Source of the DNA: Candidatus Woesebacteria bacterium
GTDB lineage: Bacteria; Patescibacteriota; Microgenomatia; UBA8517
NCBI GenBank assembly: GCA_016700095.1
Contig: CP065002.1
Span: 28,074-92,073 of the forward strand
DNA length: 64,000 nt
Direction of reading: 5' to 3'
The translations under genes and the position numbers were made by a program. The notes beneath the pieces were generated by a model. The model saw nothing but the letters and a program-made list of their open reading frames with translations, was not told where the DNA came from and did not search any database. Below are positions 12,928-42,648 of the stretch, piece by piece; positions within the stretch are counted from its first letter, which is position 1, and the number at the start of each line of letters is the position of its first letter.

Positions 12928-13281
12928 ATGCGAACGTCTAATAAAAAGTTAAATCTTTCTCTTCAAAAACAAGTTTATTCACTTTTTAATCAATTGATTG
13001 TTGACATAAAGGGAAACGACGAAGCTGAATTAATCATGCGCGATTTTTTCAAAGATTCGGAATATGAAATGTTTGCCAAAAGGTTAGCCATCGCATATTG
13101 GCTAAAGAAGGGAAGAAGTTATGCAAATATCAAAAAGAATTTAAAGGTGTCTTCGGCAACAATCGCTTCAATTCAACAAACAATGGACAAAAAGGGAATA
13201 AAACACGCTTTGAAATATGTCGAGGCCGATGAGTGGGCGTCAAAGTGGTCTGAAAAAATTAAAAAAATTACACGAAGATAA
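12928..13281 (+). CDS. YerC/YecD-family TrpR-like DNA-binding protein
   Basis: At 117 aa, MRDFFKDSEYEMFAKRLAIAYWLKKGRSYANIKKNLKVSSATIASIQ matches the TrpR-like YerC/YecD family. A TTGACG-N16-TATACT promoter lies upstream (12871-12898). Confidence 0.6.
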   Translation: MRTSNKKLNLSLQKQVYSLFNQLIVDIKGNDEAELIMRDFFKDSEYEMFAKRLAIAYWLKKGRSYANIKKNLKVSSATIASIQQTMDKKGIKHALKYVEADEWASKWSEKIKKITRR

Positions 13282-13282
13282 A

Positions 13283-13828
13283 TCAAATATCAATTTCAAT
13301 GATCCTCGCTCCGTAAGTTCGATACAGTTTGCTTTCTTCATACACCGACTCAGCATTCGAATATTGATGTCCAACAAACACATATTTTGGTCTTTTCGCA
13401 AGGACATATCGCCTAATATTTTCCGACCCAATATGAACTGGATCATTTGGGTCATCCAGCATTCCTTTTGGCCCAGCATGAAGAAGCAAAATATCAACAT
13501 ATGGAAAAGTGTCTGCAAAATTTGCAGCTTCCTCTTTTGTATACATGAGACCAGAATTTTTGTATTTTAAACACCCCTGGAATCCTCCCCATTTTAGTCC
13601 TCCAAAATTAACAACTTTGTTGTGTAGGTTTACAATTCCAAGTTGGTCAAAATACCGACCCGAGTCGTGGTTTCCATATACGCCAAACGAAGGTTTCTTG
13701 ATATGCATCTCTTCAAGTCCGGGAAAATCAAAAAGAGTCAAGTCTCCTGTCGAAACCAAAATCTCACATTGACTATATAAGTTAGCAAAATCGGCTGAGG
13801 TGCAATCAGAATAATGAAGTATTTTCAT
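13283..13828 (-). CDS. Calcineurin-like metallophosphoesterase
   Basis: It carries the GDLT, GNHDS and GH motifs (VYGNHDSGRY, LLLHAGP, FVGHQ). Confidence 0.65.
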   Translation of the reverse strand: MKILHYSDCTSADFANLYSQCEILVSTGDLTLFDFPGLEEMHIKKPSFGVYGNHDSGRYFDQLGIVNLHNKVVNFGGLKWGGFQGCLKYKNSGLMYTKEEAANFADTFPYVDILLLHAGPKGMLDDPNDPVHIGSENIRRYVLAKRPKYVFVGHQYSNAESVYEESKLYRTYGARIIEIDI

Positions 13829-13845: not shown

Positions 13846-14475
13846 TTACAGATGGTATTTCTCACAAAGTCCACTATAAACATACAAACCTTCCCGACCA
13901 TTTTCATGATACGCATACGGAAAGTACATTGCCCATTCGTCATCTCCAAGTTCAAATAAGTCGTTTAGTTTTTTGTCTTCACCAGCAAAAGTATTCTTTA
14001 GGTACACTCTCTCGTCTAATGATAAATGTCCGATAATTAAACATCCTAAATTTGCAAACATGTTATCTGTAATACTCTGTTTTATTTCTTTCACATTGAT
14101 TTCTTCAACAACCACAATTAGTTTTTTTGGCCGAGCTTCTGCAAATAAGTAGTGAATTACTCCGTTTCCACTCCACCGAGAAAGATCATTTATACCAATA
14201 ACATGATGTATGCCATTTTTTCTGTCCTCATGACTAGAACTTTCATGGTCGACAAACTTATCAAAGTCGTGGTTTAGATTATGAAATACTTCATCTTTCT
14301 GAAAAGTCCACTTATTAAATCTGAAACTTTTTTTCAAGGACTCTGCATTCGATGTTTCTCTTTCCCAAAGTTCATACACAGAATTTGCACCACCATAATT
14401 AGCATCTGGAATTTTTCCAATTATCACAACAGTTCTTCGATAATCAATTGGGTTAAAAGAAAGTGGAAATTTCAC
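13846..14475 (-). CDS. Hypothetical protein, possibly degenerate metallophosphoesterase-like
   Basis: An ORF of 209 aa co-directional with the previous gene. It contains GHLSLDE and HHVIGIND segments but no clean motif set. Confidence 0.35.
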   Translation of the reverse strand: MKFPLSFNPIDYRRTVVIIGKIPDANYGGANSVYELWERETSNAESLKKSFRFNKWTFQKDEVFHNLNHDFDKFVDHESSSHEDRKNGIHHVIGINDLSRWSGNGVIHYLFAEARPKKLIVVVEEINVKEIKQSITDNMFANLGCLIIGHLSLDERVYLKNTFAGEDKKLNDLFELGDDEWAMYFPYAYHENGREGLYVYSGLCEKYHL

Positions 14476-14496
14476 AGTTAAACATTAACATAAGGC

Positions 14497-14630
14497 TTGA
14501 TAATGTTGCAATCTGTTGGTAAACTGCGAACATGGTACCGAGCATAACAATTGTTTCAATGATGATGGCAGACTTCTCATAGGAGGTTTGTCTTATCAGT
14601 GGAAAAACCTCCGAACGGAGGTTTTTTTTT
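14497..14630 (+). promoter_or_regulatory. Candidate Met-sensing transcription attenuator: promoter, leaderless 16-codon leader ORF with MMM, and alternative antiterminator/terminator hairpins
   Basis: A TTGATA-N17-TAAACT promoter sits at 14497-14525. An ATG at 14532 opens MVPSITIVSMMMADFS* (14532-14582), with three consecutive Met codons at 14559-14567. GGAGGTTTG (14583-14591) can pair with AAACCTCC (14605-14612) as an alternative to the terminator stem CCTCCG/GGAGG (14608-14621) plus a T9 run (14622-14630). Confidence 0.4.
14603..14630 (+). terminator. Rho-independent terminator (attenuator terminator)
   Basis: AAACCTCCGAACGGAGGTTTTTTTTT is a GC-rich stem followed by a 9-T run. Confidence 0.6.
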
Positions 14631-14716
14631 GAGCAAATATATCAGTTTACCCAAGTAGACACACGAAGACTTGTTGAATATATCAACAATGAAAGTTGTG
14701 TGTTTTAAATCACATA

Positions 14717-15544
14717 ATGAAACCGAAATTTATTACCCTAATAAACGACTGTAAAGACGATAATGCCAAAAGCAGACAAACAACAAGGTGGTCTGCTCTT
14801 TTCCCTTCGATCAATGTGTCGTTTGTCGGCGTAGACAGTTCTTTGGGTAAAAATTCAACCATCGAAGCCGCCGGAAATATTATCGACATTCTCGACGCCA
14901 GCATGCATGAACCCGGTATTTTAGCAGTAAACGTTGCGCCTCGCGGAACCAAGACCGACGGTGAAAACGGTTCAAGTTTCTGTTATTTTTGGATAGGAAA
15001 TGTGTTAGTTGTCTCAACAGTCAAAGATTACAACCTGTCGCTAGTCAAAAAATTCGGCATGGTAAAAAATATTAATATTCTCGATATTCCAACAATACTC
15101 AAGAAATTAGTTAAAGCTCAGCTCGTATCTCGTCAGCTTGCCGAACATATTTCCAAGTCACAATTTAGGAGTTTTGATTTCCAACCCAGGGTCGCCAAGT
15201 GGATTTGCGATGGAGTTGATGTTCCTTCCAAAAAAATACCGATTAAAACAATTAGTGATATACCCCAATCTGCTTGGTGTATCGATTCCTTTGGGAACAT
15301 TAAATTAACCTTGACAGCACAAGATTTCTGTTCCTCTACTCCACCTTGTATAATCAAAACAAGCATTGGAGTTTTCAAATATTATAAACATCTCAAAGAC
15401 GTACCAGATGGCGACACGGCGATATACATTGGAAGTTCGGGATGGAAAAAACACAGGTTTCTTGAACTGGCGACACAAAATCGAAAACCGGGTGCGGCCA
15501 AAAAACTTGGTGTCAAAATTGGTAGTGAAATAAATATTCTGTAA
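14717..15544 (+). CDS. SAM hydroxide adenosyltransferase-like protein (DUF62; fluorinase/chlorinase/SAM-hydrolase family)
   Basis: Three family-like motifs are present: INDCKDDNA (cf. FlA SDLGTTDDS), FCYFWIGNVLVVST (cf. YIYIAPNNGLLT) and CIDSFGNIKLTL (cf. IDHPFGNVWTNI). It lies 15 nt upstream of metG. Confidence 0.5.
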   Translation: MKPKFITLINDCKDDNAKSRQTTRWSALFPSINVSFVGVDSSLGKNSTIEAAGNIIDILDASMHEPGILAVNVAPRGTKTDGENGSSFCYFWIGNVLVVSTVKDYNLSLVKKFGMVKNINILDIPTILKKLVKAQLVSRQLAEHISKSQFRSFDFQPRVAKWICDGVDVPSKKIPIKTISDIPQSAWCIDSFGNIKLTLTAQDFCSSTPPCIIKTSIGVFKYYKHLKDVPDGDTAIYIGSSGWKKHRFLELATQNRKPGAAKKLGVKIGSEINIL

Positions 15545-15559
15545 AACAATATCACATTT

Positions 15560-16993
15560 ATGAACAAAAATTATTACATTACAACAACCCTACCCTATGT
15601 AAATGCCTTACCGCACATGGGTTTCGCGCTTGAGATAATCCAAGCAGATATACTTGCCAGGTACAACGAAAGACTTGGTAACACTGTTTTTTTTAATTTC
15701 GGTACCGACGAACACGGACAAAAAATATACCAGAAGGCGGTGGCGTCGGGAAAACCTCCGCAAGATTATGTTGATGAATTTGCTGCAAAATTCGATGATT
15801 TAAAAATAGCGTTAAATCTAAGTTACAATAATTTCATACGCACAACCGACGCACATCACAAAAAAGCAGCTCAAGAAATATGGATCAGATGTCGCGATAA
15901 CGGTTACATCGAAAAAGGGATATATAAAACGAAATACTGTATCGGCTGTGAACTCGAAAAACAAGATTCTGACTTGCAAGACGGCAAATGTCCACTGCAC
16001 CCCACTTACGAAATTCAATATATTGAAGAGGAGAATTATTTTTTTAAATTTTCCAAACTCCAACTCAAGCTACTCGACTTATATCAAGCAAATGAAAATT
16101 TCGTCGTACCAAAACACAGGTATACAGAAATCATAAACTTCGTTAAAAGCGGACTAAACGACTTTAGTATCTCCAGACAAAAGGAAAAAATGCCGTGGGG
16201 AATTGAGGTTCCCGATGACAACAAGCACGTAATGTACGTATGGTTTGATGCGCTGACGAATTACATCTCCGCTCTTGGGTGGCCGGAGAACACGTCAAAA
16301 TTCAACGATTATTGGGGTTCTATCGCTAACCCAAATGCGATTCAAATTGCCGGAAAAGACAATTTAAGACAACAATCCTCTATGTGGCAGGCAATGCTTC
16401 TTGCTGCAGGTTTACCGCCAACCAAGCAAATCATAATTCACGGATTCATTACATCCGGTGGGCAAAAGATGAGCAAAAGCTTAGGAAATGTTATTAACCC
16501 CTTCGAATATGTCGATACTTATGGAACAGATGCGGTAAGATATTATCTTGTTTCAAAAATTAATCCTTTCGAAGACAGCGATTTTACCAAAGAAAGCTTT
16601 GAGCTGACATACCAGGCTGACCTCGCAAACGGTTTGGGCAATCTGGTGTCAAGAGTAAGTAAAATGTGTGAAACACAAGGAGTGGTCGCAAATTCTCACA
16701 ACGACTTAAAATTTAGTCCACTGATAGTTAATCATTTGACATCTTATCGTTTCGATATGGCTATTAAAACAATCTGGGACAGCATTAAAAAAACCGATAT
16801 GTGGATTAACGACAACAAAGTGTGGGAGTTAACGGGTGAAGAGAAAAATAAAGCCTTAAGCTATCTTGTTGGCATAATATTACAGATAACGTATGATTTA
16901 TATCCATTTATGCCCGAAACTGCTGACAAAATTAAAAAGCAGTTTACCAGCGATAGTATTAAATTGTCTAATCCCCTTTTCCCAAGGCTTTAA
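15560..16993 (+). CDS. metG: Methionyl-tRNA synthetase (short, class I)
   Basis: It has the PYVNALPHMGFA (HIGH-type) motif, a Zn knuckle CIGCELEK...CPLHP, the KMSKSLGNVI motif and the anticodon-binding helical domain, in 477 aa. Confidence 0.85.
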   Translation: MNKNYYITTTLPYVNALPHMGFALEIIQADILARYNERLGNTVFFNFGTDEHGQKIYQKAVASGKPPQDYVDEFAAKFDDLKIALNLSYNNFIRTTDAHHKKAAQEIWIRCRDNGYIEKGIYKTKYCIGCELEKQDSDLQDGKCPLHPTYEIQYIEEENYFFKFSKLQLKLLDLYQANENFVVPKHRYTEIINFVKSGLNDFSISRQKEKMPWGIEVPDDNKHVMYVWFDALTNYISALGWPENTSKFNDYWGSIANPNAIQIAGKDNLRQQSSMWQAMLLAAGLPPTKQIIIHGFITSGGQKMSKSLGNVINPFEYVDTYGTDAVRYYLVSKINPFEDSDFTKESFELTYQADLANGLGNLVSRVSKMCETQGVVANSHNDLKFSPLIVNHLTSYRFDMAIKTIWDSIKKTDMWINDNKVWELTGEEKNKALSYLVGIILQITYDLYPFMPETADKIKKQFTSDSIKLSNPLFPRL

Positions 16994-40155: not shown

Positions 40156-40179
40156 ATACTTAACAATAAGATATAATTG

Positions 40180-40346
40180 ACTAATTAAGGCGCTTTAAAT
40201 TTGGTTAGTCCCCAAATTAGCCTGTAGCTGACAAGAAACTTAAGTTACACGGATGCAAGCCGTAATCTGCAAAATTAAGTAATAGTTGAGGTGGTACCTG
40301 TCCCGGAAACGGGATCCGCAACACGCTGAGATTGGCGTGTTTTTTT
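40180..40346 (+). promoter_or_regulatory. Candidate T-box riboswitch leader upstream of valS
   Basis: GAGGTGGTACC (40288-40298) matches the T-box core AGGGUGGNACC. The rho-independent terminator AACACGCtgagattgGCGTGTTTTTTTT (40320-40347) lies immediately downstream, and the stem-loop GTTACACGGatgcaagCCGTAAT lies upstream. Its position 5' of an aminoacyl-tRNA synthetase gene fits a T-box. Confidence 0.4.
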
Positions 40347-40371: not shown

Positions 40372-42648
40372 ATGGAAAAACAATATAATCATTGTGATTA
40401 TGAAAAGAAAATCTATAAGATGTGGGAAGATGGTGGATATTTTAAGGCCGAAATTGATCTTAATAAAAAGCCATATACAATTCTTCTTCCACCGCCCAAC
40501 GCTAGTGGAAAAATGCATACAGGCAACGTTCTTATGATTGCAATTGAAGACTTACTTATCAGGTGGAAGCGTATGCAGGGTTACGCCGCACTTTGGATCC
40601 CTGGAACAGACCATGCAGGATTTGAAACACAAATTACTTTTGAGAAACAACTGGCTGAAAAAGGTGATTCACGCCTAAACTACGACAGACAAACTTTGTA
40701 CAATATGATTTGGGAATTTGTACAAGGAAACAAACACTTAATAGAAAATCAAATCAAAGAAATGGGTGCAAGTGTTGATTGGAATAGGTATACCTTCACC
40801 TTGGACGATAAGGTTATACGGACTGTTTATGAAACCTTTAGTAAACTTCACAATGACGGCTTAATTTACAAAGACGACTACATGGTCAACTACTGCACCT
40901 TTTGCGGAACGACGTTTGCAGACGCTGAGGTGTCACATAAAACTAAAATTTCGCCTTTGTACTACGTTAAATATCAACTCGTTGATATCACTTATCAGAA
41001 AAAGGCTTATATTGTAATCGCCACTACTCGCCCAGAAACGATTTACGTAGATACTCATGTGGCAATTAATCCCAGCGATACAACCAAAACAGAATTGATT
41101 GGCAAAAAAGTCCTAAATCCTCTCACCGAAAATGTGATGGATATTGTTGCCGATGAATTTGTAGATCCAAAATTTGGAACCGGAATCGTCAAGTTAACGC
41201 CAGCGCACGACAAAAATGATTACGAGGTGGCCAAAAAAATCAACCTTCCAATAATTCAGGTTTTTGGGATGGATGGGAAAATGAATAGCAACGCGCGTGA
41301 ATTTGAAGGATTGTATATTAAACAAGCTCGAGAAAAAGTAGTAGAACAACTAATAAAAAGTGGAAAAATTGACAAGATAGATGAAAATTATGTCAACACC
41401 GTCGCTTTGTGCAAAGGTAAACACCAAATTGAACCAATGATAATACCCAATTGGTTTGTTAAAGTCGACAGTCTTAAAAAACCTGCACACGAAGCCGTTA
41501 AAGACGGCAGAGTCACTATCTACCCAAAATGGCAGGAAATTAAATATCACAGATGGATGGAAACCATGCATGATTGGCCTATTTCCCGGCAAGTAGTTTG
41601 GGGAATTAGAATACCAGTGTGGTACGAGGTGTCACAAAATCCAAATTTAGTAATTACATTTCTTACAGAGAAAAGAAACGTTATAACCGGCAAACTTAGC
41701 GAGATATTAAAGGATCACGCGCTTGGTGAAATTAAAAACGGTCTTCAAACACTTGTTGCAACCAAAGACAGCAAATATGTTATTTCCAGCGATCAACCCG
41801 GAGAAAATTATTTGCCTGAAACCGACACTTTTGACACATGGTTTTCGTCTGGTCAGTGGCCACTCGTTACACTAGGATATCCAGAATCTTTGGATTTTAA
41901 GTATTTTTACCCCACAGCAGTTCTCGAAACAGGTTGGGAAATACTCCGACTTTGGATATCCCGAATGATTATGTTCGGATTATATTTAGCAAACGATGTA
42001 CCTTTCAAAAACGTTTATCTTCACGGAATGGTTCGTGCAATAGATGGACGAAAAATGAGCAAAAGCTTAGGAAACAACATTAATCCGGATGAATACATCA
42101 AAGAATACGGTGTGGATGCACTTCGCATGGGACTTATTGCCGGAACAGCAAATGGCAAAGATTTTAATTTTCCACACGACAAAGTCAAATCGTACAGAAA
42201 CTTTGCAAACAAAATTTGGAATATCGCCCGATTTATGAATATGTTGTTTGAAGAATTCGAAAACGAAGACATCGAAGAATTTGACGATCTTGCTTCAAGT
42301 CCCGCTTCTGATGAGCAGTTAAACATTAACGACAGAAATATTCTTAAACTCCTCGATGAGACAATCAACAAAGTTGATTCTTCGCTTAACAAATATCGTT
42401 TTTCCGATGCTTCCGAAGCAATCTATCATTACATATGGAATGAAGTTGCTTCAAATTACATTGAAGATGTTAAGTTAAGAAAAGGAAACAATAAGCGGGT
42501 TGGATTAATTGTTTTAAAACATGTATTTCTTAACAGCATGAAACTGCTTCATCCTTTTATGCCCTTTGTAACCGAGGCGGTCTGGCAAGAAACAACACAC
42601 AAGAGTACCAGCCCTTTGATCATCTCCACTTGGCCTACATCTAAATAG
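40372..42648 (+). CDS. valS: Valyl-tRNA synthetase (compact form lacking C-terminal coiled coil)
   Basis: It has PPPNASGKMHTGN (the ValS-type PPPN + HIGH region), IVIATTRPETIYVDTHVAINP (the ValS CP1 editing-domain TTRPET motif) and KMSKSLGN. LeuS (TTRPDT) and IleS were considered and rejected. Confidence 0.75.
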   Translation: MEKQYNHCDYEKKIYKMWEDGGYFKAEIDLNKKPYTILLPPPNASGKMHTGNVLMIAIEDLLIRWKRMQGYAALWIPGTDHAGFETQITFEKQLAEKGDSRLNYDRQTLYNMIWEFVQGNKHLIENQIKEMGASVDWNRYTFTLDDKVIRTVYETFSKLHNDGLIYKDDYMVNYCTFCGTTFADAEVSHKTKISPLYYVKYQLVDITYQKKAYIVIATTRPETIYVDTHVAINPSDTTKTELIGKKVLNPLTENVMDIVADEFVDPKFGTGIVKLTPAHDKNDYEVAKKINLPIIQVFGMDGKMNSNAREFEGLYIKQAREKVVEQLIKSGKIDKIDENYVNTVALCKGKHQIEPMIIPNWFVKVDSLKKPAHEAVKDGRVTIYPKWQEIKYHRWMETMHDWPISRQVVWGIRIPVWYEVSQNPNLVITFLTEKRNVITGKLSEILKDHALGEIKNGLQTLVATKDSKYVISSDQPGENYLPETDTFDTWFSSGQWPLVTLGYPESLDFKYFYPTAVLETGWEILRLWISRMIMFGLYLANDVPFKNVYLHGMVRAIDGRKMSKSLGNNINPDEYIKEYGVDALRMGLIAGTANGKDFNFPHDKVKSYRNFANKIWNIARFMNMLFEEFENEDIEEFDDLASSPASDEQLNINDRNILKLLDETINKVDSSLNKYRFSDASEAIYHYIWNEVASNYIEDVKLRKGNNKRVGLIVLKHVFLNSMKLLHPFMPFVTEAVWQETTHKSTSPLIISTWPTSK

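Follow-up and report, generated by a model that had tools for sequence, protein, structure and literature searches.

A candidate methionine-sensing leader-peptide attenuator ahead of a SAM-hydrolase-like gene and metG in a Candidatus Woesebacteria genome and its relatives

Can a bacterium sense methionine with the same codon that starts its proteins? The textbook leader-peptide attenuators are specific for tryptophan, histidine, phenylalanine, leucine, threonine, and isoleucine/valine; methionine would be a special case, since the codon to be sensed is also the start codon. The question is raised by an element of about 100 nucleotides (nt) in a 64,000-nt stretch of contig CP065002.1 from a Candidatus Woesebacteria bacterium (hereafter the window, whose positions serve as coordinates throughout), where a short open reading frame (ORF) with a run of methionine codons and a terminator precede a gene for a protein resembling S-adenosylmethionine (SAM) hydrolases of the DUF62 family, and metG, the gene for methionyl-tRNA synthetase (MetRS). 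From the sequence and its comparison across relatives, we hold with a probability of roughly 80% that the element senses charged tRNA-Met through ribosome-mediated attenuation of transcription, in a new methionine-specific and probably leaderless variant of the classical mechanism that is found in many genomes labelled as Candidate Phyla Radiation (CPR) or Patescibacteria. To our knowledge, gene regulation in these mostly uncultured bacteria has been little studied, and an element this small offers a directly testable regulatory mechanism among them. A search of the open-access full-text literature found no methionine leader-peptide attenuator, nor any leader-peptide attenuator in CPR bacteria, and there is no family for the element in Rfam 15, Pfam or NCBIfam.

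A first-pass annotation of the window had already proposed a minimal attenuator at this place, and the parts that it named are where it put them (Table 1). The claimed promoter pair, TTGATA-N17-TAAACT, is exact and scores 9/12 matches in a promoter scan; only 6 nt separate TAAACT from the leader ATG, so that transcription is predicted to start at, or adjoining, the A of that ATG. Equally exact is the 16-codon ORF with its three consecutive Met codons. The segment that follows the stop codon was said to pair with the 5′ half of the terminator, and its arm GGAGGTTTGTC (14582-14592) is indeed 91% complementary to GAAAAACCTCC (14602-14612); the first 8-11 nt of segment 2 (GGAGGUUUGUC) double as the 5′ arm of an antiterminator. 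The terminator itself, described as CCTCCG…GGAGG followed by nine Ts, has arms of 100% complementarity (AAAAACCTCCG / CGGAGGTTTTT, 14603-14626) and a run of nine U at 14622-14630. It is absent from the listing of a consensus terminator scan, probably because the stem takes up part of the T-run, and was recovered by a purpose-written scan for hairpins with T-runs. A scan of the window finds no second combination of a Met run and a terminator, and other Met leaders, sought across the window and all fetched loci, yielded none that was convincing. Upstream, the element is bounded by a divergent minus-strand gene that starts at 14475.

Table 1. Parts of the leader element and the genes behind it, in window coordinates
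Feature	Position	Strand	Details
Promoter	14497..14525	+	-35 TTGATA 14497-14502, 17-nt spacer, TG-extended -10 TAAACT 14520-14525
Leader ORF	14532..14582	+	16 codons and TAG (14580-82); peptide MVPSITIVSMMMADFS
Proposed sensing site, three consecutive Met (AUG) codons	14559..14567	+
Segment 1, 5′ arm of the 1:2 (anti-antiterminator) hairpin	14560..14577	+	From minimum free energy structures; covariation, helices 1 and 2
Segment 2, 3′ arm of the 1:2 hairpin	14582..14598	+	First base is the G of TAG
Segment 3, GAAAAACCUCC	14602..14612	+	Alternative partners: segment 2 (antiterminator) or segment 4 (terminator)
Intrinsic terminator	14603..14630	+	10-bp stem AAAAACCUCC / GGAGGUUUUU, loop GAAC
Perfect inverted repeat TTGTTGA-ATATA-TCAACAA	14671..14689	+	Inside the 86-nt spacer between terminator and first gene
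First gene, divergent DUF62 / SAM hydroxide adenosyltransferase-fold protein	14717..15544	+	275 residues
metG, methionyl-tRNA synthetase	15560..16993	+	477 residues; Pfam tRNA-synt_1g 2.2e-91; database protein name

Folding shows that the attenuator is not minimal after all. The 103-nt transcript folds with -36.0 kcal/mol (z = -4.6), and none of 200 shuffled sequences folds equally well. Its minimum free energy structure consists of the terminator and of a hairpin that the first-pass annotation overlooked, the strongest structure of the whole element at -18.5 kcal/mol, in which segments 1 and 2 are paired; its 5′ arm takes in two complete Met codons and part of the first, and its loop contains the stop codon. 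Adding this hairpin gives the full four-segment anatomy of a classical attenuator, with 1:2, 2:3 and 3:4 as alternative pairings. If a ribosome footprint occupies the Met codons, the 2:3 antiterminator forms between GGAGGUUU and AAACCUCC. Its energy is -11.1 to -14.0 kcal/mol and that of the 3:4 terminator -11.2 to -13.0 kcal/mol; the alternative pairing is competitive. With the footprint on the stop codon, the arm in segment 2 is masked and the terminator alone is able to form. Folding thus agrees with the earlier proposal that a stalled ribosome would free the antiterminator while one at the stop codon would mask it.

The same behaviour was followed in a switching simulation, in which the nascent RNA was folded up to segment 3 with a ribosome on the first or the last Met codon, on the stop codon, or absent. 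For the window, the fraction of segment 3 that is paired upstream is 0.90 with the ribosome on a Met codon, 0.30 at the stop codon, where the value reflects a weak structure of -0.8 kcal/mol, and 0.20 with no ribosome. Across 23 loci with a terminator (located by script, four of them placed by hand), the mean fraction of segment 3 in the antiterminator is 0.82 and 0.78 for stalls at the first and last Met codon and falls to 0.07 at the stop codon; the state without a ribosome is mixed across these loci (0.45) and clear in the window. Of the 18 relatives in which the script placed the terminator correctly, 17 have an antiterminator arm that begins 9-18 nt past the final Met codon, and segment 2 of the window, measured by hand, begins 17 nt past its own. 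This spacing matches the downstream reach of a ribosome.

In the mechanism that we propose, transcription would start at or adjoining the A of the ATG at 14532, and a ribosome would load on the 5′-terminal AUG of the nascent RNA and be coupled to the polymerase ahead of it. While Met-tRNA is plentiful, the ribosome would pass the three AUGs and reach the UAG, where its footprint would cover segment 2 (GGAGGUUUG...); segment 3, left free, would pair with segment 4, and the hairpin with its nine U would halt RNA polymerase at about 14628-14631. When Met-tRNA is scarce, the ribosome would stall with one of the three AUGs in its A site, covering segment 1 and sparing segment 2, which would pair with segment 3 as soon as that emerged, block the terminator, and allow read-through into the DUF62-like gene and metG. 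If the leader were not translated at all, the 1:2 hairpin and the terminator would both form, and transcription would end. The response to methionine starvation would be more MetRS and more of an enzyme whose family reaction, a nucleophilic attack on the C5′ of SAM, frees L-methionine. The codon-biased short ORF, the terminator, the mutually exclusive antiterminator, their geometry, and the amino-acid-related target genes are together those of a classical attenuator.

The comparison across relatives drew on 80 species-representative genome loci with a gene of the DUF62-like family (39-54% identity; 81 loci with the window), most of them labelled as CPR or Patescibacteria; many come from third-party metagenome-assembled genome records, whose labels we take as given. 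Similar Met-rich leaders stand at the same place in 23 of the 80, again mostly labelled as CPR or Patescibacteria. At least three in-frame ATGs per seven stop-free codons are found upstream of 26/81 DUF62-like genes, and at least four upstream of 18/81; in other 300-nt chunks of the same loci the corresponding counts are 68/2454 (2.8%) and 4/2454 (0.16%), and the reverse strand gives 3/81. About 24 of the 81 loci have the complete attenuator anatomy, among them MKIYSVNMMEMMTS, MTHLKTTMMNMMSTP, MTTSNPTMMKMMMPRLRGLLS, MSTKTATMMMRMMTSTQEGGFSFR and MINTLAITMMMEHD, and a terminator was found in 23 of the 24 homologous leaders examined. The lineage labels of genomes with a leader include Woesebacteria, Dojkabacteria, Kaiserbacteria, Nomurabacteria, Komeilibacteria and Paceibacterota, and two layouts can be told apart: in the Woesebacteria-like layout, to which the window belongs, the stop codon lies in the 1:2 loop and adjoins segment 2, while in the Parcubacteria-like layout the leader ORF continues through segment 2. 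The four closest relatives, from metagenomes and with 55-59% identity, all have the leader (MNKRFFGTMMETKLS, MSKKLTYSTTMMMEMELS, MKTNFSMMMEMELS, MTSKLTVNNMMMTDF), each with a stop codon 1-2 nt before GGAGG or GGGGG and then a terminator with CCUCC or CCCUC. They share the gene order RmuC, TrpR-like, leader, DUF62-like and metG, with a Ham1-like gene inserted ahead of metG in one of them. The Met codons of the leader, whose loss from relatives would have counted against the earlier proposal, are thus kept in its nearest kin and well beyond.

The phase of the AUGs shows that they are read as codons. Counted from the start ATG, the ATG triplets inside 30 leaders are distributed 119:2:1 over phases 0, 1 and 2. 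Met accounts for 21% of the internal codons, and the positions between Met codons are free to change, with E, N, K, A, S, R and G all occurring. A different possibility is that the RNA acts untranslated, either as a small SAM or methionine riboswitch or by pairing its AUG repeats with the CAU anticodon of tRNA-Met in the manner of a T-box specifier, an idea that draws on the position of the AUG run inside a conserved helix, on the complementarity of AUG to the tRNA-Met anticodon, and on what seems to be a T-box-like antiterminator upstream of valS in the same genome. Such an RNA would have no use for ATGs kept strictly in the phase of a 5′ ATG that itself lies at leaderless distance from a -10 hexamer, nor for a stop codon fixed next to segment 2 while the triplets between the AUGs are free to vary. 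Beyond the AUGs and the complementary arms there is no conserved unpaired core that might bind a ligand, and neither the T-box (RF00230) nor the SAM riboswitch models match at E ≤ 10 in 14300-14900. We consider an untranslated sensor quite unlikely.

The pairings of the attenuator are conserved along with its codons. RNAalifold recovered the 1:2 hairpin and the terminator from 11 leaders, and a covariance model built from these 11 found six further independent leaders at 31-76 bits; in the whole window its sole match is the element (71.5 bits). In a 17-sequence alignment that was fitted to the structure of the model, and which thereby favours the model, pairing holds in 90.5% of cells, and compensatory changes are seen at 12 of 19 pairs, with 5 of 7 in the terminator helix (helix 3); none of 500 shuffles reaches the native level of pairing, and slid registers give 54-65%. 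Close relatives change all arms together, from GGAGG / CCUCC / GGAGG to GGGGG / CCCUC / GAGGG. For the 2:3 helix, the GGAGG of segment 2 falls out of register in both the MAFFT and the model-fitted alignments, and the pairing was therefore judged by a permutation test in which duplexes were formed across loci. The native duplexes between leader and terminator arm have a mean of -10.3 kcal/mol against -7.6 kcal/mol across loci, a level that 0 of 10,000 permutations reach, and the leader-terminator complementarity is therefore locus-specific. No Rfam family matches at its gathering threshold, either in the window or in 20 homologous loci; with permissive E-values around the element, only the Phe_leader model (RF01859) turned up, with 27.9 bits against a threshold of 55, aligned mostly on the terminator. 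These results also bear on whether a short ORF, a Met run and a terminator might simply have come together by chance, since AT-rich DNA abounds in short ORFs and in hexamers that resemble promoters. We hold coincidence to be extremely improbable, given the z of -4.6 for the fold, the enrichment of 32% against 2.8% in relatives, the covariation and permutation tests, and the recovery of independent loci by the covariance model.

How would such a leader be translated without a Shine-Dalgarno (SD) sequence? The first-pass annotation had supposed a leaderless start, and the relatives bear this out: 19/24 leaders have an in-frame ATG that follows the end of a TANNNT hexamer by 5-8 nt, and a TTGACA-like -35 usually accompanies the hexamer at a spacing of 16-18 nt. 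Among all ATGs of the same loci the rate is 7.9%. The window as a whole points the same way. An SD-like motif (at -20 to -4) precedes 1/47 long ORFs, compared with 7.8% of random positions, and TANNNT stands 5-8 nt before the first ATG of 16/47 long ORFs (34%), compared with 9.6% for all ATGs. The DUF62-like gene and metG both lack such an arrangement, and with it a leaderless promoter of their own. By these signals the genome appears to lack SD sequences and to make many leaderless mRNAs, with leaderless initiation as a normal event for the organism, and the element in turn supports the view that translation here is normally leaderless and independent of SD sequences.

The scarcity of SD motifs also weighs on the idea that the leader acts mainly on translation, its CCUCC / GGAGG hairpin hiding the ribosome-binding region of the first gene until a stalled ribosome opens it. 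There is a precedent in the leaderless poly-Cys short ORFs of mycobacteria (bioRxiv 10.1101/834739), and some relatives are suggestive: at L061 (2470-2500) the 3′ arm GGAGG lies 7 nt before the DUF62-like start, at Shine-Dalgarno distance, and at L002 the GGAGG arm and T-run stand just ahead of the predicted gene start. In the window, however, the hairpin ends 86 nt ahead of the start codon, with no SD-like motif before the gene, as is the case for 46/47 window genes, and the U-run that follows the hairpin in most of the 23 loci is the signature of an intrinsic terminator. For the window, control of transcription is the simpler account and a mainly translational one is unlikely; some relatives (e.g. 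L061, L082, L084) may use both levels.

What, then, does the attenuator control? The DUF62 assignment made in the first pass holds only at the level of the fold. Pfam SAM_HAT_C matches the 275-residue protein with 29.8 bits against a cut-off of 25.5, while the N-terminal Pfam domain goes undetected and NCBIfam has no match; neither a single-sequence search nor one with a 25-sequence profile finds a match in the PDB, and the DUF62-like family has hundreds of members in these genomes (418 homologs at E ≤ 0.001). The AlphaFold model is confident (predicted local distance difference test 92.9, predicted template modelling score 0.91), and its top 30 Foldseek matches in the PDB are all SAM hydrolases, chlorinases and fluorinases (including 2wr8, 1wu8, 2zbu, SalL, FlA and MJ1651), with E of 3e-12 to 5e-8, template modelling (TM) scores of 0.55-0.73, 284-318 aligned columns, and 14-18% identity to solved members of the SAM hydrolase family in the structural alignments. 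Only the predicted fold links the protein to the solved SAM hydrolases; by analogy with that family, we infer that it may cleave SAM and release L-Met. Every characterised reaction of the DUF62 family that we know of frees L-methionine from SAM. The hydrolases have been assigned to the salvage of the inactive (R)-SAM epimer (preprint 10.1101/2025.08.29.672840).

The second gene, metG, starts 15 nt after the stop codon of the DUF62-like gene, and the consensus scan lists no plus-strand terminator-like site between them. The linkage to metG, on which the methionine-supply operon of the first-pass annotation was built, extends no further than the window, the seven nearest relatives that were found (3 of the 80 genome loci and four metagenome loci), and L089, where the leader precedes a DUF62-like gene and metG follows about 1 kb downstream. 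Elsewhere the DUF62-like gene is followed by unrelated genes (DsbA-like, NTPase and lysozyme-like among them), by genes at a distance of over 100 nt, or by none on its strand; it is therefore the core target. In a second sample of 80 metagenome loci chosen via metG, L089, L092 and L116 alone carry the leader, and at L092 (MKKENKMMMQSNF) and L116 (MNIRVSIMMEMKLS) metG follows it directly, a DUF62-like gene being absent altogether, which ties the element to methionine independently of the uncertain DUF62-like enzyme. Four other metG loci of this sample with a 'Met score 3' were rejected, three because the Met codons belong to a long reading frame that ends before metG and one for want of a terminator.

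The 86 nt between terminator and first gene, with their palindrome, leave room for a second promoter, and with it for a reading in which the leader ORF is a small gene in its own right, coding for a Met-rich peptide and closed by its own terminator, and the DUF62-like gene and metG are transcribed from another promoter. Met-rich motifs can bind Cu(I), and a peptide of this kind could have a function of its own. The peptides, however, have nothing conserved beyond the Met run and their C-terminal residues, which are dictated by RNA pairing, and six leaders of 21-30 residues have no Pfam or NCBIfam match. Several relatives have no room for a separate promoter, as their terminator reaches to the start codon that follows: its T-run abuts the DUF62-like start codon at L061 and ends about 4-14 nt short of it at L082 and L084. 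Nor would the simple end of a gene need the locus-specific complementarity between segment 2 and the terminator arm, and we regard an independent small gene as very unlikely.

Several observations weigh against the attenuator as we describe it, in addition to the fitted alignment already mentioned. The promoter match is not significant by itself, as the scan found 13 sites against 7.3 ± 2.4 in shuffled sequences, and the Met codons of the window leader number just three. The spacer of 86 nt and its inverted repeat, which could be an operator or an RNA hairpin, could also mark a second control element or promoter in this genome. At equilibrium the full-length RNA slightly favours the terminator even with a ribosome on the Met codons, and the decision of the switch must therefore be kinetic; the trp attenuator of Escherichia coli is likewise kinetic. 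Methionine starvation also depletes the initiator formylmethionyl-tRNA, which could lower the loading of the leader and favour termination, and we know of no study of the coupling between ribosome and polymerase in CPR bacteria. The element is not universal, since about 55/81 DUF62-like loci and about 75/80 metG loci are without it. Finally, a fairly close relative with metG downstream (L007:2341-2431; 36 bits) keeps the antiterminator and terminator arms, while its leader-like ORF MRTSLRILMSKPQ is read as having just one Met codon after the start, and the leader may have decayed there or been re-tuned.

The proposed regulation would hint at a role in methionine supply from SAM for a DUF62-like family that is without annotation. 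One may go further and suppose, tentatively and with rather less than even confidence, that many CPR and Patescibacteria share a methionine 'ribulon', in which leaderless Met leaders induce the divergent SAM-cleaving enzyme, and in some lineages MetRS, when Met-tRNA is low. Under this view the reduced and host-dependent bacteria would meet methionine limitation by recovering methionine from SAM, possibly host-derived SAM or its inactive (R)-SAM epimer. In that event CPR genomes would also carry a wider and so far undescribed range of leader-peptide attenuators of other specificities, for which the Ile/Val/Leu-rich element at L069 is a candidate.

Some neighbouring features deserve a record of their own. 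In six loci with the leader (L082-L085, L092 and L116), a TrpR-related (YerC/YecD-like) gene lies immediately upstream on the same strand. In the window, two minus-strand genes separate the TrpR-related gene (12928-13281) from the leader, a metallophosphoesterase (13283-13828) and a 209-residue ORF without a Pfam match (13846-14475), and this pair looks like an insertion. At L053:1723-2151, the ORF after the DUF62-like gene joins a short TatD-like N-terminus to an Anticodon_1 domain resembling the C-terminus of MetRS, and could represent a fusion or a fragmentary gene. At L069 (3330-3460, plus strand), an ORF rich in Ile, Val and Leu (MKFIKDMIIVLLITP) comes immediately behind the DUF62-like gene and is followed by GGGCGGGAGG and by a terminator, ACCCGC-UUAUAG-GCGGGU with seven U, that abuts the ATG of a 545-residue ORF without a Pfam match; the Met-leader model gives this second element a weak 24.4 bits, and it may be an attenuator of another specificity. 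The window holds about three canonical-looking terminators made of a hairpin and a T-run (14605, 31178, 40320), two of them in 5′ leaders of tRNA synthetase genes. The second such leader (40170-40346) belongs to valS (40372-42648, plus strand), with about 180 nt between TATAAT and valS. It seems to have a T-box-like antiterminator, with a helix GUUGAGG / CCGCAAC, a bulge UGGUACC and a hairpin UCCCG-GAAA-CGGGA, that overlaps a terminator, AACACGC...GCGUGUU with seven U; Rfam has no match to it at E ≤ 1, and a T-box of divergent or minimal form is a possible identity. The valS ATG is itself preceded, at 6 nt, by a -10-like TAATAT.

Among known systems, three invite comparison with the methionine attenuator proposed here. 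In Firmicutes the same amino acid is sensed by T-boxes, which also precede metS, the synthetase gene. Met-specific T-boxes stand ahead of other methionine genes as well, such as the metICFE-mdh leader of Staphylococcus aureus (PMC3771891), and there too methionine limitation, felt as uncharged tRNA-Met, relieves a terminator before Met-related genes; but a T-box binds the tRNA directly, without translation, whereas our element is read as codons and matches no T-box model. The polycysteine leaderless short ORFs of mycobacteria, the 'Cys ribulon' (Canestrari et al., bioRxiv 10.1101/834739), likewise begin at the 5′ end of the mRNA, use a run of codons for a single sulfur amino acid as the sensor, let the stalled ribosome remodel a downstream RNA duplex, and deploy the device at several loci. 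They belong to another phylum and read Cys rather than Met, and they free a sequestered ribosome-binding site, and thus control translation, where the hairpin of our element is a canonical terminator with a U-run. The classical leaders of E. coli, trpL, hisL, pheL, leuL, thrL and ilvL, have the short ORF of cognate codons, the 1:2, 2:3 and 3:4 alternatives, a stop codon placed for the masking of segment 2, and an intrinsic terminator before the first structural gene, all of which recur here. The element differs from them in its methionine specificity, in an apparently leaderless mRNA with no Shine-Dalgarno sequence, in its CPR host, and in a first gene that resembles a SAM-cleaving enzyme and not a biosynthetic one, and it has no similarity to them in sequence or by model. 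The closest likeness is to pheM-pheST of E. coli, in which a leader peptide likewise controls an operon that includes the cognate aminoacyl-tRNA synthetase.

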